IMG/VR virus record: IMGVR_UViG_3300016657_000022
Location: 1 to 64,000 of that record
Direction: 5' to 3' (one strand)
Source: a virus
Lineage: Duplodnaviria; Caudoviricetes
DNA: 64,000 bases
Program-made: the position numbers and the translations under genes
In this document: positions 1,607 through 31,220 of the stretch, piece by piece
Numbering within the stretch: position 1 is the stretch's first letter
How the letters are laid out: each line of letters begins with the position of its first letter
The notes under the pieces: generated by a model
Told to the model about the DNA's origin: nothing
Databases searched by the model: none
The model's input: only the letters and a program-made list of their open reading frames with translations

Positions 1607-4270
1607 CTAGGCAGCTTCTGCCATTGCCTTCTCGACAACACCGAAAATCTCGTCCTCGGTGGCGTCGTTGGGAATAGTGATCTCGGTCTTCCAATTAGGA
1701 TAGAAGATACCAAGTTCACCGCCCAGCTTTACTTCATCGTGCTGAATATCAGGCAGTTCCTGCCACTTCACAGCCGTAACGAGATTGTCGTTGGCGTATT
1801 TCACCGCCTTAATATCGTCTCGGATGAGGAAGTATTGAGCGTCATGGATCTGAGCACATGGTTTGATGTCAAGCCTAAACTTGCTCTTGCGTACTTTTCC
1901 ATTGAACTCAACACCTGCTCGACTGTTGAGAAGACAGTAGGATTGTCCCAAGGCATTTCCAGCAGTTCGACCCTCGGCCTCGGCCTGATGAGGAGTCTTG
2001 CTGGTTCCACGCACCACTTGGTGCAGGAGGGGCGTGCGAAGACGCAGCCCGAATGCAATGGTGACATAGCCATCCTTCGTTGCCTGATCGAGCTTAGCAG
2101 CGACCCATTGGTCACTGACCACATACAGCTCGTGGTATTTCGCCTCGACCGACTTCGCCTTCTCCTCCGAGAAACCGCAGTTGACCATTAGCGTCTTGTA
2201 GGTGCCCTGATACGTCAGGGCGAAGGTGGGAGCCTTGCTGTCCTGACGATAGGATTTGTACTTCTTCTCGATGGAATTGATGCTGACCACCGATGTGGGG
2301 TCGATGTCCGGCATCTCATCACCCCAGTAAGCATAGGCCCGGAGGCTGTGCCCATCATAGCCATCGGTATAGACCTTCAGCTTGTTGGGATCCTTACTGG
2401 TGAGGGCGGAAATCCTGTCTTCCAGAGAGGCAAAGTCCAGTCCCACGAACAACCATCCGGGGGGTGCCTCGAAACAGCTCTTGATGAGCTTGGCGTACCG
2501 GCTGGATGCTGGCAGGTTCTGGAGGTTCGGGCCACTGGACGAAAGCCGACCACTCTTGGTGCCCCCGAGGTTGAAGTTCCCGAACAGATAGTGCCATCCG
2601 TCGTTGCCACGCTGAGCGTTCTTGAGCGACGGGATGAAGTCCGTGATGATCTTGTTCACGGCCTTGTAGTCTTCCAGTGCCTTCAGGAACTGGAGGATGT
2701 CCGGGTCGGACGTGTGCTTCTGCAATGCCTTAATGGCATCGCCGTCTGCACTTGGCTGCTTGCTGTCGGTGTACCCGACGATAGGAAGCCCGAGGATCTC
2801 GAACAGAAGCTCCTGCAACTGGGGTGCCGAGTTCGGGTTGAAGGTGGTTTCCTTCCGTGTTGGTTCATGGGTGAGCGCCAGCTCAGCCATCTCCTCAACG
2901 GTGATCGACTTCTTCTTCCACTCAGCATTCTTCTTGTTCGTGTAGTGCTCAAGCCGGGTGTAGTTGTATTTCTGCACCACCTGTGTGGCAAACATCTCAC
3001 GGACTGTTCGGTCCTGCTCGATGGTCAGCTCTTCTTCCACCTCCAGCACACGCTTCATGTTCACCGGCATCCCGGTGAGCTGCATCTGAATGATGTCGAT
3101 GGTCGCTGGCTGAAACAGCTCACGATACACTGGAAGCTGGTCGTCCTTGACCAGTTGATCCCAGTGCTTGTTATAGACATACCATGTGCTGAGACTATCC
3201 ACCAAGTTATATTGGAGGAGGGTCGGCATCGGGATCTTGGTGATGTCCTTGATCTCTTCGACCGCGTAGTTCCCAGCGAACTCCTGAGCCTGATCCTTCA
3301 GGCCAAGCTGATTGCCAGCACAGGAGTTGGTAGCCAGATAGGTGATGAGCTTGGTGCAATCCCACTCACCAACATCGCCAAGCATGACCTCCAGCCCATA
3401 GAGCAACCCCTCTTGATCGAGGATGTGTTCCATGAAGAGCTGATAGATCAGGACGTAAACGTCGAAGGCGATGTTGTGCCACATGATCTTGACGCCCTGC
3501 TCTCGACACAGCTCGAAGAACCGTTTGAGCATGGCACGACGTGTGGGGCTTGGGCGCCTGAAACCATAGGTGCCGTCAGCCTCAGCAGCCATAGGACTGA
3601 AGACGCTGTGCGGATGGTAATCGACCGGGAAGGCCAATCCCTCTCCTTGGTTCCAAGCGAAGCTGATGGTTCCGATACCGCATTCCCAGTGCTTCAGGCC
3701 GAAGCCTTCGATGTCAGCGGCAAGGGGCTTGCCCATCTCCAGCAGCTTGATAAGCCACTGTTCGATGTCATGGTCGGTGTCGGGATAGTGAGCCTTCTTG
3801 ATGACCGACTCACCCGGTGGTGCATATTTACCACACCGATGATCGAACACGGCTTTGATGCCCTGTGCGATCTTCTCCTTCGTTGGTCCGGGATTGTGGA
3901 AGATCTGTGCCGAACTGGGCACATACACCACCTTGAAGTTCCCAAACGGGCTGTCCATCACATAGCCCAGATGGGCTTCGATCTTGGACGCCTTGGTCAG
4001 AGCTTTGAAATACTCGCCATCGGTGCAGATGACGTACTCGACCATCATGTCGGTGAATGTCGGGACCAGCATCTCCGTGATGTAGGACCGCATCTCAACC
4101 ATCGGGGTCTTCTTCCCAGTGCGGTGCAGGTCAATGACCAGCACATCATCCGGGACCAGCTCCGGGGTATTGAGATAGGCGGTCCTGATGTCATCCTTGC
4201 GGATGGTTGGAACCAAGAGGCAGACTGGATACCTGCCAAGCTCTGTGTCGGAGAAATAGGCGTACCGCAT
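1607..4270 (-). CDS. Family A DNA polymerase with 3'-5' exonuclease domain (N4 gp39-like)
   Basis: 887 aa; exo DIEGFG, TKSGRLSSSGPNLQNLP, motif A GLDFASLEDRI, motif B KAPTFALTYQG, motif C QIHDAQYF. Confidence 0.97.
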   Translation of the reverse strand: MRYAYFSDTELGRYPVCLLVPTIRKDDIRTAYLNTPELVPDDVLVIDLHRTGKKTPMVEMRSYITEMLVPTFTDMMVEYVICTDGEYFKALTKASKIEAHLGYVMDSPFGNFKVVYVPSSAQIFHNPGPTKEKIAQGIKAVFDHRCGKYAPPGESVIKKAHYPDTDHDIEQWLIKLLEMGKPLAADIEGFGLKHWECGIGTISFAWNQGEGLAFPVDYHPHSVFSPMAAEADGTYGFRRPSPTRRAMLKRFFELCREQGVKIMWHNIAFDVYVLIYQLFMEHILDQEGLLYGLEVMLGDVGEWDCTKLITYLATNSCAGNQLGLKDQAQEFAGNYAVEEIKDITKIPMPTLLQYNLVDSLSTWYVYNKHWDQLVKDDQLPVYRELFQPATIDIIQMQLTGMPVNMKRVLEVEEELTIEQDRTVREMFATQVVQKYNYTRLEHYTNKKNAEWKKKSITVEEMAELALTHEPTRKETTFNPNSAPQLQELLFEILGLPIVGYTDSKQPSADGDAIKALQKHTSDPDILQFLKALEDYKAVNKIITDFIPSLKNAQRGNDGWHYLFGNFNLGGTKSGRLSSSGPNLQNLPASSRYAKLIKSCFEAPPGWLFVGLDFASLEDRISALTSKDPNKLKVYTDGYDGHSLRAYAYWGDEMPDIDPTSVVSINSIEKKYKSYRQDSKAPTFALTYQGTYKTLMVNCGFSEEKAKSVEAKYHELYVVSDQWVAAKLDQATKDGYVTIAFGLRLRTPLLHQVVRGTSKTPHQAEAEGRTAGNALGQSYCLLNSRAGVEFNGKVRKSKFRLDIKPCAQIHDAQYFLIRDDIKAVKYANDNLVTAVKWQELPDIQHDEVKLGGELGIFYPNWKTEITIPNDATEDEIFGVVEKAMAEAA

Positions 4271-13406: not shown

Positions 13407-13490
13407 GGCGAACGCACTCCTGAATTGCAGTGGCCTGACCGGGTGCGTTGCACCCGGCCTGAACCAAGAGAAGGGAAAGGACCAGCCGCC

Positions 13491-13532
13491 TCACAAGACG
13501 TACTCACCCTTGAGCTGCTTGCGATGCTGGAT
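13491..13532 (-). pseudogene. Stranded original 3' end of thyX (IQHRKQLKGEYVL*)
   Basis: Codon-for-codon paralogue of the thyX C-terminus IQFRKTLKGEYVN* at 13962-14003. Confidence 0.8.
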
Positions 13533-13972
13533 CACTTGTAATGCTCCACATAATCGGCAACACGACGTATGAGTGCTGGATCGTCTTTCAACTTACCAAT
13601 AGCATGATTGCAACAGAGCATTCCTCTGAACTTATTACTCTTATGGCAATGATCTATTGCAAGTTCTTTCCAGCGCCCATCACCAGCATTGCCGCAGATG
13701 TCACATAAACCGTTGTGCGACATAAGGTATTCTAGCAACCAATCTTCAGCGGGTATCCCTAATCGCTTTAGACGATACTTAAATCGTTTCAGTGGATCAT
13801 TGTGATACCTAGAACTCGATTGAGCATTTAATTTTTCCCGATTATTCTGTCGGTATGCTCTCATGTAATCCTTGTTGGCTTGTGCTTTTAGAGGATCAGC
13901 ATCTCGCTTTGCTCTTGCACGAGCACAAGCCGCTCGCTTATTCTCGGTTGTTTTGAATACTTTAGTTGACAT
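13532..13972 (-). CDS. Free-standing endonuclease VII-family homing endonuclease (possibly degenerate)
   Basis: AT-rich codons; CDICG...LAIDHCHKSNKFRGMLCCNHAIGKLKDD. Confidence 0.85.
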   Translation of the reverse strand: MSTKVFKTTENKRAACARARAKRDADPLKAQANKDYMRAYRQNNREKLNAQSSSRYHNDPLKRFKYRLKRLGIPAEDWLLEYLMSHNGLCDICGNAGDGRWKELAIDHCHKSNKFRGMLCCNHAIGKLKDDPALIRRVADYVEHYK

Positions 13973-14912
13973 ACTCACCTTTCAGGGTTTTCCTGAATTG
14001 TATCCAGCCGGAAAGATTGCCGTGCAGGTGGGAGTTTTCCCACTCAGGTTGCCACGACAGGTTCTTGCCGTCGCCAGCGTGACGACTCATCATTGCATCC
14101 TTCTGGTCGTACCAGTCGGGGGTGCATTGGTGCTCAGCAGGGCTGGCGTGAAGCGGCGTGCTGCCGATCAGACGATCAGCGAGCTTGCGGTCTTCCTCGA
14201 ACGTGGTCTCACGACCATCGTGGGTGAGGTAGGACACACGGGCACACCGGGCCGTCGAGATCAGCTTCAGGTGAGCGAGCTTCTCCTCGTAACGGGGTTC
14301 GTCACGGGTGATGCGGTTCACCTTGCAGTGAGTATAGGCGTCGTTCCAGTCCTGTGCCCGGCTGGCGAAGGGCAGATGCCACATGCCACGCTGGAGCATC
14401 TGGACAGGAGCAGCAGCGATGCTCTCCTTGATGCACTTGGCCAGCTCGTGGATCTCCGGCTGGGCATCTGGGTGGATACGCAAGGCGTAGAAGTTGTTCC
14501 AGCGGCTGGACGTGATGAGCGTGTTTATATGTGCCCACGGCTCAAGGATGCGGTTGCCGATCTGCTTGTGCAGGCCGATCCAGTAGAGGATCAGGGCAAA
14601 GCCGATGGCCATCCACATGGCACCGAGCCAAGCCTTCTTGGCTAGCCAGAGCTTCCAGCCGGTGAGCTGGGCACCTGCCTGCATATTGGGCTTGTTGCTG
14701 CCCCAGTAGATGGGCATCGCCGGATCACGGATGATGTTCTTGATGAGACGCATGATCGGGATGGCACGGGAGCTAGACGCATTCCGGCTGAAGTCCTTGT
14801 GGGTCATTAGCTCGGCATGGATGAAGTGAGGATAGCGAGCCATGACGGTCGCCACTTCCTTGCCGGTCTCCTGCGACTTGCTCCTGAGAATGATGGTTGC
14901 AGAGATAGTCAT
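13962..14912 (-). CDS. thyX: FAD-dependent thymidylate synthase (ThyX/Thy1-like)
   Basis: ATG 14912; RYPHFIHAELMTHKDFSRNASSSRAIP, HKQIGNRILEPW, ISTARCARVSY, PLHASPAEHQC. Confidence 0.85.
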   Translation of the reverse strand: MTISATIILRSKSQETGKEVATVMARYPHFIHAELMTHKDFSRNASSSRAIPIMRLIKNIIRDPAMPIYWGSNKPNMQAGAQLTGWKLWLAKKAWLGAMWMAIGFALILYWIGLHKQIGNRILEPWAHINTLITSSRWNNFYALRIHPDAQPEIHELAKCIKESIAAAPVQMLQRGMWHLPFASRAQDWNDAYTHCKVNRITRDEPRYEEKLAHLKLISTARCARVSYLTHDGRETTFEEDRKLADRLIGSTPLHASPAEHQCTPDWYDQKDAMMSRHAGDGKNLSWQPEWENSHLHGNLSGWIQFRKTLKGEYVN

Positions 14913-29476: not shown

Positions 29477-29950
29477 TAGAACGTGCCCCAGATGTTGTAG
29501 CCAGCCTGCCTCATCTCGCCGGTGGCTGCGAAGTAGTGCATCCACACGTTGTCGAAATAGAGGTTGGGATAGCTGGCCTTGTCGCAGTGGACGAACATCG
29601 GTGCGATGTCCTCGTGCCTGAGACCGGCAAGGCCACAGCCAATGCAGGTCATCTGGAACGTCAGCTCAGGGTGGCCACGAACATATGCGAGGAAGCCCTG
29701 CACATAGTCCTTGATGGTGCTGAGGCTCAGCGTGTCACCGACCACCATGCTCTCGCTGTTGCGACCCTCATGGTTGCGGATCATCTTGAAGCCCTTGGTG
29801 GGGATGGCGAAGCTCTGACCGAAATGGCCATAGCTCAGTCCCCAACGGGCACCACGTTCCTTGTATGCGAAACGGGCGGCACCGCCTCCGTGGATACCAG
29901 CTTCATTACTGCCGAAACACGAAGACCATTTTGTTCGTCTGAACAGTCAT
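29476..29950 (-). pseudogene. N4 gp14-like (FVFGSN/A1S_2505-type, macro-like) gene with a +1 frameshift at 29915-29917
   Basis: GGAGG RBS; GTG TTT C GGC AGT AAT; removing one T gives MTVQTNKMVFVFGSNEAGIHGGGAA...IPTK...TCIGCGLAG; 475 nt = 158 codons + 1. Confidence 0.85.
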
Positions 29951-29953
29951 GAT

Positions 29954-30595
29954 CTACCTCCTTTGTTTTGATGTGTTGATTGGGGTTGTCAGAGCAGTAA
30001 TAATATCCATGCTCTGACGCGATTGTCGTTGTTTTACTCTGGCATAACTGATGCCAAAATGTTTGCACCATCCTGAGATGGTGTTCTGAACTCCATTGAT
30101 AGTAATCATTTTGGAGTTGGTGCTGTTGGTTGCTTGAGTTTGTCTGGTTGCCCAGACGCAATTGGTGGGTTCGTAGTCCTTGGTTCCATCCAACCTTTCA
30201 ATTGTATGGTCCTTGGGTCTCGGCCCCATGTCTGCGAAGAAATTCTCAAACCCATTTGGTCCAGACCACCGGGCACAGACAGAGATGTGCTGGTAAATTC
30301 CGGGCTGCCCGCACCTCTGGTGCATGGCAACCCAAGATCTGTAAGCGCCTGTGTGATTTCCACGTTCAGCTTGACCGTGTTTTATATTGGTGTTTGTAAC
30401 CGACTCTGATCGGAAGCATCCGCAAGATGTAGTGTTGAGATGCCTTACCCATGCGATAGGCCTTTCAATGATATTGCCACAATCGCACTCAAAGAATGCT
30501 GCTCTGGCTTTGCCCTGCTTGGGTGCCTCGCCTTGATATGTCAGGCGTGTATTGGGAAACCTCTGGCCGACTTGATATTGGATAGCTGCTGGCAT
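29954..30595 (-). CDS. Free-standing HNH-type homing endonuclease
   Basis: AT-rich; CDCG...TTSCGC...YRSWVAMHQRC...FENFFADMGPRP...TIERLDGTKDYEPTNCVWAT. Confidence 0.88.
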   Translation of the reverse strand: MPAAIQYQVGQRFPNTRLTYQGEAPKQGKARAAFFECDCGNIIERPIAWVRHLNTTSCGCFRSESVTNTNIKHGQAERGNHTGAYRSWVAMHQRCGQPGIYQHISVCARWSGPNGFENFFADMGPRPKDHTIERLDGTKDYEPTNCVWATRQTQATNSTNSKMITINGVQNTISGWCKHFGISYARVKQRQSRQSMDIITALTTPINTSKQRR

Positions 30596-30642
30596 TTTTG
30601 TCTCCTTGTATCCCTAAGGATAACAACCAAAGACAAACATGT

Positions 30643-30681
30643 CTAGCTACCGAACACGAAGATCATCTTGTTCAATTCCAT
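30643..30681 (-). pseudogene. Stranded original 5' end of the gp14-like gene (MELNKMIFVFGS*)
   Basis: Aligns codon-wise with NKMVFVFGS of the downstream copy; AAAGGA RBS; overlaps the upstream stop. Confidence 0.8.
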
Positions 30682-31220
30682 GGCACGCTGTCCTTTTCGT
30701 TGACGAAGGCGACGAGAGCTTCCAGCTCATCGTCCAGTCTGATGTTGAAGGTAGGAATGGCGAAGGTCTTGGCGATCCTGAGCGAGTGATTGGTGCCACC
30801 GAAATAGTCGGCTGCACCCTCTTCGCTCTGCCAGTAGATCACCATGTCCACGGGCAGATCTGCATCCTGTCCCAGAATGATGTTCACATTCCGGTTCATG
30901 AGCTGCTGATAAGCGGGACGCATGGTGTCGTACTTGGTGTGGTGCATGGCAGCGATGTGCCTCACTTTGTCGCTGTCATTGCCGACCATGTAGCAGTCGT
31001 AATGAGGTGCGTCGTTGAAGCCCGGCTTGGGAATGAAGATCTCCTTCATGTCCACAGGAGCACCAGCACCAAAGGCTTGGTCAGCTCCCTTACCGTGGCC
31101 ACTTCTCAGCAACCACTGACTGCCAGCAAGCTGTGATGCAATCTCGCTCATGATGGGTAACACCGTTAAAGGTGTCACGCGTGGACCAATTCCACCATAA
31201 AGTTTCTGGGTCATATTCAT
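30672..31220 (-). CDS. DprA/SLOG-like nucleotide-binding protein
   Basis: ATG 31220; LYGGIGPRVTP...LLRSGHGKGADQAF...RNVNIILG...GGTNHSLRIA..IPTFN. Confidence 0.8.
   Translation of the reverse strand: MNMTQKLYGGIGPRVTPLTVLPIMSEIASQLAGSQWLLRSGHGKGADQAFGAGAPVDMKEIFIPKPGFNDAPHYDCYMVGNDSDKVRHIAAMHHTKYDTMRPAYQQLMNRNVNIILGQDADLPVDMVIYWQSEEGAADYFGGTNHSLRIAKTFAIPTFNIRLDDELEALVAFVNEKDSVPWN

Follow-up and report, generated by a model that had tools for sequence, protein, structure and literature searches.

Introduction

The WHO elements of Torulaspora and Lachancea yeasts consist of a nuclease gene together with an upstream 3′ gene end that confers resistance, and allele-specific cleavage of their target, FBA1, has been shown experimentally (Coughlan et al. 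2020 eLife, PMC7282813). The displaced fragment found downstream of such an element is regarded by the same authors as a homology arm for repair (PMC7282813). Fungal mitochondrial mORFs with a C-terminal duplication are known from atp6 of Allomyces macrogynus and from atp6, atp9, cox2 and nad3 of Glomus sp. (PMC3630166), and F-CphI of cyanophage S-PM2 is a DHHRN homing endonuclease (Fang et al. 2018, PMC6083498). Here we describe a comparable arrangement at the thymidylate synthase gene thyX in a 64,000-nucleotide (nt) stretch of DNA of an N4-like phage, positions 1-64,000 of the 73.5-kb viral record IMGVR_UViG_3300016657_000022 (hereafter the window). We propose, with a probability of about 0.8, that the end of this thyX was exchanged by an end-replacing homing cassette, made up of a 13-codon foreign thyX tail and a translationally coupled gene for a nuclease of the endonuclease VII (Endo VII) type.

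As in the WHO elements, the window has an endonuclease gene with a replacement 3′ end upstream and the old 3′ end displaced downstream, and the WHO model predicts the discordance between gene body and gene tail that is seen here (∼80% versus 52% nucleotide identity to L001, a viral contig whose thyX lacks the nuclease). The WHO proteins, however, are intein-like LAGLIDADG and zinc-finger proteins, whereas the window nuclease is of the Endo VII/DHHRN kind; their target is FBA1 in a eukaryotic nuclear genome, with homing in meiosis; they replace about 400 nt and not 39 nt; and they form tandem clusters, whereas the window has a single remnant. No shared ancestry of the two is implied. The mORFs show the same order of a foreign C-terminal end, an endonuclease open reading frame (ORF) and the native C-terminal end, the native and inserted ends having 91-98% versus 64-81% nucleotide similarity to a near relative (81% versus 52% in the window), and a further likeness is that some of the ORFs keep the phase of the host gene. 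They differ in encoding LAGLIDADG or GIY-YIG enzymes in organellar genomes, and some are fused in phase to the host gene, whereas the window thyX has its own stop and the nuclease lies in another frame. F-CphI resembles the window nuclease as a free-standing phage homing endonuclease with the Endo VII catalytic motif beside a conserved metabolic gene, and it avoids self-cleavage through an altered target without a partner protein, as we infer for the window. In the case of F-CphI, a group I intron in psbA shields the DNA of its phage ('collaborative homing'), whereas in the window no intron was found and the gene end is swapped.

In intronless homing of the T4 type (SegF, SegG, MobE), a free-standing endonuclease spreads by double-strand-break repair with co-conversion of its flanks, and insertions in T4-type phages and in Aeh1 are, as in the window, associated with a nucleotide-metabolism gene. 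Unlike the window nuclease, Seg and Mob genes are intergenic, and MobE of Aeh1 splits nrdA into two polypeptides ('genes in pieces'). We know of no Seg, Mob or Aeh1 case with a replacement gene end and the old end left behind. A literature search of incomplete coverage found no end-replacing cassette described in a phage, nor a homing endonuclease at an N4-like thyX. The class of mechanism is known from the WHO elements and the mORFs, and homing endonucleases with the Endo VII motif are known in phages from F-CphI.

thyX has two 3′ ends on either side of a nuclease gene

The thyX gene, the nuclease gene, both tails and the downstream gene all lie on the minus strand (Table 1). The thyX product matches PHROG 85 'thymidylate synthase' (E 5.6e-74) and scores 22.6 bits against Pfam Thy1 (PF02511), slightly below the cutoff of 24.8; PF02511 is found in homologues of 50-58% identity. 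Its ThyX signature reads THKDFSRNASSSR, compared with THRxFSRNASSSR in relatives. A tblastn search of phage records with thyX, a conserved gene, returned >1000 matches of ≤51% identity, the top ones being thymidylate synthase annotations from N4-like phages of Erwinia, Achromobacter and Stenotrophomonas. Judged by these matches, the gene is probably a divergent ThyX-type thymidylate synthase gene.

Table 1. Features of the thyX region, in window coordinates.
Feature	Coordinates	Strand	Basis or remark
thyX ORF	13962..14912	minus	316 codons
thyX native body, codons 1-303, end ...HGNLSGW	14004..14912	minus	flavin-dependent thymidylate synthase-like
Whole insert (replacement tail and nuclease gene), 471 nt, AT-rich	13533..14003	minus	comparison with L001, GC trough
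Replacement tail, IQFRKTLKGEYVN + TAA	13962..14003	minus	putatively carried by the cassette
Endo VII-type nuclease ORF, 146 aa	13532..13972	minus	PF02945, PHROG
Native thyX tail, IQHRKQLKGEYVL + TGA	13491..13532	minus	displaced downstream of the nuclease
Downstream neighbour gene, 159 aa	12927..13406	minus	conserved; anchors synteny with L001

The 3′ end of thyX reads GGC TGG ATA CAA TTC AGG AAA ACC CTG AAA GGT GAG TAT GTC AAC TAA, and a second tail, ATC CAG CAT CGC AAG CAG CTC AAG GGT GAG TAC GTC TTG TGA, lies beyond the nuclease gene. Both ends agree base for base with a preliminary description made from the letters of this DNA alone, which had also, correctly, placed the endonuclease ATG within the new thyX end. 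The same description had put the second tail directly after the nuclease stop; in fact the two overlap by one base, the final A of the nuclease TGA being the first base of the old tail. When the 64-kb window is translated in all six frames, the motif Q[HFYLN]RK.[LIMF] is seen at two places only, one in each tail, and the second tail is more than a chance resemblance. The two tails match at 24 of 42 nt, and their divergence is uneven, with 11 of the first 24 nt identical versus 13 of the remaining 18. The replacement tail keeps the thyX ORF intact and retains the family-invariant residues Q305, R307, K308 and L310 and the near-invariant E313. The old tail is without a start codon and is untranslated in the window, which follows from the nuclease keeping its own end, and because the length of the insert (471 = 3 × 157 nt) is divisible by three, it remains in the thyX frame. 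Frameshifting or readthrough into the old tail was considered and rejected, there being no slippery sequence.

The insert lies between thyX codon W303 and the native last 13 codons. The 3 nt GAT are present at both junctions (TGGAT/A... and ...GTGAT/CCAG), so the exact boundary is ambiguous. Over about 13530-14000 the GC content falls to 0.38-0.49, compared with ∼0.6 in the flanks, and the GC content of third codon positions is 0.78 in the thyX body, 0.79 in the old tail, 0.36 in the nuclease gene and 0.50 in the new tail. A log-likelihood ratio of synonymous codon usage gave +18 bits for the old tail (host-like) and −5.7 bits for the new tail (nuclease-like), in which ATA, CAA, AGG and AAA are codons that each make up only 5-15% of their synonymous set in host genes. 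The nuclease gene shares its first 11 nt with the thyX end: the thyX codons TAT GTC provide its ATG, with the Shine-Dalgarno-like AAAGGTGAG directly upstream, and both lie within the replacement tail. These observations support the view that the replacement tail is foreign-looking and part of the nuclease unit, the latter because the tail holds the start codon and ribosome-binding site of the nuclease. That the invasion was intron-free, as the preliminary description had proposed, agrees with an Rfam search of the region, which found no family at E ≤ 1. The insert sits, again as proposed, inside the thyX 3′ end. A search for promoters and terminators found none above background, and the nuclease gene (GC content 0.43, single-copy in the 73.5-kb genome) probably shares a transcript with thyX, to which it would also be translationally coupled.

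A nuclease-free relative carries the downstream end

The contig L001, from IMG/VR, encodes a thyX protein 86% identical to that of the window and lacks the nuclease. Its thyX has a single tail of the old type, ...GWIQHRKQLPSEYVK before the stop, with the uninterrupted end DNA GGCTGGATCCAGCATCGC and a junction (thyX body followed by ATCCAGCATCGCAAGCAGCT...) that reads GGCTGGATCCAGCATCGCAAGCAGCT, as compared with the recoded junction ...GGCTGGATACAATTCAGGAAAACC... in the window. The preliminary description had expected relatives free of the endonuclease to end in the manner of the old tail, and L001 does so, ending IQHRKQLPSEYVK. A homologue of the next gene of the window lies 96 nt after thyX in L001 (3985..4509), and the window remnant and all DNA after it are collinear with the thyX end, intergenic region and next gene of L001. 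The old tail is identical to that of L001 in its first 20 nt and at 34 of 42 nt overall (81%), while the new tail matches at 22 of 42 nt (52%). Identity of the thyX body to L001 (∼80% at the nucleotide level) is kept along its full length, with no fall beside the junction. We considered a co-conversion tract in thyX upstream of the junction and rejected it, the last 33 nt of the body having an identity to L001 of 0.79, no different from the average over the gene. In the protein collection, the closest thyX sequences, compared as proteins, end IQHRKQLHGEYVK, IQYRKQLPGEYVK and IQHRKILPGEYVS; neither L001 nor any of these ends IQFRKTLKGEYVN. The comparison supports the reading that the downstream copy is the native thyX end in the window.

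An Endo VII-type nuclease

The nuclease matches Pfam PF02945 (Endonuclease VII; E 1.5e-15, 57.3 bits, cutoff 23.6) and two PHROG 'endonuclease VII' families (PHROG 2914, E 1.9e-22, and another, E 7.8e-22). An alignment of 25 homologues, the window copy among them, shows no variation at D107, H108, H110, R116 and N122, which correspond to the DHHRN residues of F-CphI and of T4 Endo VII, whose catalytic residues are D40, H41, H43, R54 and N62 (PMC6083498). The structural zinc of Endo VII is bound by CX2-4C and CX2C (PMC6083498), and the first of these pairs is kept in the window nuclease (C90-D-I-C93). Its best sequence match among solved structures is Hpy99I, a beta-beta-alpha-metal restriction enzyme (E 0.0085). 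An AlphaFold2 model (pLDDT 82.7) has a four-helix N-terminal part, then the catalytic core, with two short strands and helices at residues 106-145; a Foldseek search with this model ranked Hpy99I and T4 Endo VII first, at E > 1 (not significant). By motif and homology, the protein is classed as an enzyme of the Endo VII type (DHHRN, with a putative beta-beta-alpha-metal fold), and it is a putative free-standing homing endonuclease.

The C-terminus of Hpy99I, ..VIEYLKKY, aligns with ..VADYVEHYK of the window nuclease, which by this alignment terminates at the natural end of its domain. The possibility that EHYK before the stop is an older, decayed thyX remnant (compare IQHRK) was rejected, since Hpy99I ends alike at the same alignment position.

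A family of nucleases at the end of thyX

With the nuclease as query, about 165 loci were obtained from IMG/VR, JGI/NCBI metagenomes and GTDB genomes. A tblastn search with thyX placed this gene directly upstream of the nuclease in nine of them (L009, L092, L010, L089, L091, L093, L094, L095 and L098, with L009 and L092 near-identical). Each of these nine thyX genes has its own tail and its own stop, and wherever the nuclease start could be placed it overlaps the thyX tail or follows within a few nt. The sequence of L095 ends before the nuclease 3′ end. The other eight loci extend that far, and each has there either a second tail or, in L010 and L098, a shortened piece of one (Table 2).

Table 2. 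Tails of thyX and second tails at loci with the nuclease; (stop), stop codon.
Locus	thyX tail	Second tail or nuclease end
L009	IQFRKTLEI (stop)	..SYLIQHRKLLEI (stop)
L093	RQHRKQLANEFIPG (stop)	..RQFRKMLPNEFVPG (stop)
L094	IQFRKLIPGETIYDN (stop)	..EHHRKLIPGETITE (stop)
L089	IQFRKTIPNECYHG (stop)	..VQARKLVPNEV...
L098	RQYRKTLNGECQ (stop)	..TPKTLPGECQ (stop)
L010	IQFRKTLKNECQ (stop)	..EGDCQ (stop)
L091	SQHRKQLPNEFISG (stop)	nuclease end ..YVEHYQ (stop), then untranslated QYRKMLLNEF

In most relatives the nuclease ORF is without its own stop and reads into the old tail, which becomes the C-terminus of the nuclease; the window nuclease and its subgroup keep their own end (..ADYVEHYK before the stop in the window). 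The old end is thus stranded, as had been suggested, in the window genome but not in most of the family, where it is translated. At least 14 more homologues in the protein collection end in an in-frame fused thyX tail (proteins with such ends are P0124, P0125, P0127-P0131, P0133 and P0136-P0143). The nuclease P0124 may lie on the same contig as the thyX protein P0004, as the equal length of their contigs (8778 nt) suggests. A tree of 118 Endo VII relatives placed all sequences that adjoin thyX or carry a fused tail in a single clade of 34 members (support 0.997), which contained no non-thyX locus. The nuclease was absent from 79 other IMG/VR thyX loci, and none of these had a second Q-x-R-K tail motif. 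Its presence is sporadic at one and the same site, as the comparison of the window with L001 illustrates. Taken with the tree, these loci indicate that the layout is a family trait of one nuclease clade.

Among GenBank phages, megablast with the region found no match, and tblastn with two family members against cultured phages found distant Endo VII genes only, of 30-50% identity over part of the length, none of them at thyX. The Kuravirus matches H41 and H60 were examined as thyX cassettes and rejected, as they are located elsewhere in those genomes. The cassette is also present on a 185-kb viral contig (L010, IMGVR_UViG_3300046642_000884), that is, beyond genomes of N4 size, and in L089, a 25.7-kb contig that was binned with a Zixiibacteriota metagenome-assembled genome and is likely to be phage or prophage DNA. 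The ending ...GECQ before the stop recurs in several thyX genes (L010, 2480..2500; L098, 640..655; P0054; L246; L250). It arises in L010 and L098 from the overlapping nuclease start (GA ATG TCA G..); L246 and L250 share it without this nuclease, and there it may indicate that a downstream element was lost or is of another kind.

Variation of the tails

The residue after the Q of the tail differs between the thyX tail and the second tail in all six independent lineages for which both are known (F/H in three, and H/F, H/Y and F/A in one each). As background, this residue is Y in 61, H in 25 and F in 14 among the 111 of 120 thyX homologues with a motif match. L093 carries QHRK and has QFRK displaced, and related nucleases tend to share the type of tail that they displace. 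These differences are suggestive and hint at allele-specific recognition, perhaps with reciprocal classes of nuclease. The invariant Arg is encoded by AGG in five of nine cassette tails versus eight of 48 nuclease-free tails, a suggestive enrichment that is confounded by genome GC content. The two tails of L094 have nine identical residues and seven synonymous differences, and such silent differences would be more readily explained by a pair of orthologous tails of related phages than by decay following an in-place duplication.

Proposed homing cycle and alternative explanations

The arrangement agrees with the WHO elements in each point, and the cassette would most likely spread by the same cycle. 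In a mixed infection, the nuclease would cut a cassette-free thyX near the GW/IQ codons. The left break end would pair with the thyX body of the donor and the right one with the copy of the old tail that follows the nuclease gene there, so that repair would copy in the replacement tail and the nuclease gene and push the recipient's own tail downstream. The new thyX junction, changed at most codons, would no longer be a target. Both cleavage of the empty thyX and immunity through the recoded tail are inferred here; recoding-based immunity is plausible by analogy with the WHO elements (PMC7282813). Such a cycle would account for the nuclease start inside the imported tail; for the many family members that need no stop of their own; and for the downstream tail that always looks fresh, because each homing event would regenerate it from the recipient.

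Several observations count against this proposal. The second zinc motif of the window nuclease reads CC (C120-C121), compared with CxxC in all 24 relatives and in Hpy99I, owing to a six-base in-frame deletion (13595..13600 region, codons 120-121) that removes the two spacer residues; the motif is intact (..MLCSDCNH..) in P0121, a metagenomic homologue of 95% identity. Because its zinc-binding CxxC has lost two residues, the window copy may be inactive and may not have cut any DNA in the recent history of this genome. It has probably begun to decay, as a true member of the family and not an outsider; such damage would be in keeping with what usually becomes of a homing endonuclease gene once it is fixed. 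A search of IMG/VR for a donor thyX encoding WIQFRKTLKGEYV found none. In L009, the nearest nuclease-free thyX (67% identity; relatives 65-67%) has a tail of the upstream type, and the assignment of the downstream copy as native can be made firmly, from sequence comparison, for the window alone, the sole locus with a close nuclease-free relative. In several loci the two tails also share oddities (the ending LEI before the stop in L009, IPGETI in L094, K311 in the window), which would fit homing between close relatives or gene conversion between the two copies and leave room for in-place duplication in some lineages. Finally, the F/H pattern of the tails is statistically weak (about 0.06 for six lineages, given the background frequencies).

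The duplicated end could also have arisen in place, if an illegitimate insertion of the nuclease gene duplicated the local 13 codons and the upstream copy then diverged, possibly escaping cutting, without any import. The stretch LKGEYV common to both window tails, with a K that relatives lack, speaks for this, as do the identical unusual 12-nt end CTGGAGATTTGA of both L009 tails and the concentration of divergence in the first 24 nt of the window tails. The duplication would, however, need a very lopsided rate of change, the new tail being 20 of 42 nt off L001 and the unselected old copy only 8 of 42. The new-tail codons ATA, CAA, AGG and AAA match the AT-rich nuclease gene and not the host, and the silent differences in L094 are those expected of two orthologous tails, each a working thyX end; we consider an origin in place improbable. 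Free-standing homing endonucleases such as T4 SegF and SegG usually co-convert their flanks, and an ordinary intergenic nuclease after thyX, like T4 Seg or Mob, could have brought the tail-like stretch along from an earlier host as a passenger flank that is not the native end. The upstream-type tail in the nearest nuclease-free relative of L009 agrees with this explanation. Against it, the downstream and not the upstream copy matches the nuclease-free relative and host codon usage, while the upstream copy has nuclease-like composition and holds the nuclease start codon, which makes a passenger flank highly improbable. We can nearly set aside the idea of a housekeeping junction resolvase of the phage beside a repeat that is incidental: the Endo VII fold is indeed common to the resolvase T4 gp49 (PMC6083498), but the gene is absent from L001 despite its 86%-identical thyX and is of foreign composition, the whole nuclease clade goes together with thyX ends that carry duplicated tails, and the best solved-structure match is Hpy99I and not T4 Endo VII. 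In the F-CphI study, moreover, resolvases and homing or restriction enzymes fell into separate clades (PMC6083498).

If the end-replacing cassette is accepted, the 'bring your own gene end' strategy, proven in the WHO elements and described in mORFs, would also be used in bacteriophages, with another nuclease fold. The design would be very compact, since the ribosome-binding site and start of the nuclease come from the imported 13 codons and its stop, in most relatives, from the displaced ones. For annotation, short duplicated gene ends are to be expected around free-standing nucleases, the terminal codons of a phage gene can differ in history from its remainder, and the C-terminal residues of a nuclease may really be remnants of the host gene. 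The family also provides natural pairs of putatively sensitive and resistant targets for studies of the homing specificity of Endo VII-type enzymes. A more far-reaching reading, which we regard as speculative and on balance unlikely, is that a deep Endo VII-type clade has specialised on the last codons of thyX in at least two reciprocal classes, one in which Q-F/Y-R-K invades Q-H-R-K and another doing the reverse. One invasion after another would then rewrite the tail, with its diversity among N4-like phages and others as the outcome, and the fused thyX tail would perhaps be used by the nuclease, for example to contact ThyX, rather than being a by-product.

Other features of the region

The 159-aa gene downstream of thyX matched neither Pfam nor PHROG. 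A GC-rich hairpin of 7-8 bp lies at 13439..13457, after the old thyX tail and before the ribosome-binding site of this gene, and reads CCGGGTGC-AAC-GCACCCGG on the minus strand. The same hairpin is kept in the nuclease-free L001 (about 3950..3968) with another loop (CGGGTGC-TCT-GCACCCG), and its role could be regulatory or that of an N4-type promoter hairpin.

An apparent second end-replacement is present in the same genome at 29780..30690 (minus strand). Here MELNKMIFVFGS and a stop codon lie upstream of a 213-aa ORF (29954..30595) without a Pfam match, and a new start, MTVQTNKMVFVF, lies downstream of it. An extra C after ...GTG TTT breaks the frame (CGG CAG TAA), and the remainder of the gene (GSNEAGIHGGGAARFA...) continues in the next frame to 29476; either the gene is frameshifted or the extra base is a sequencing error.

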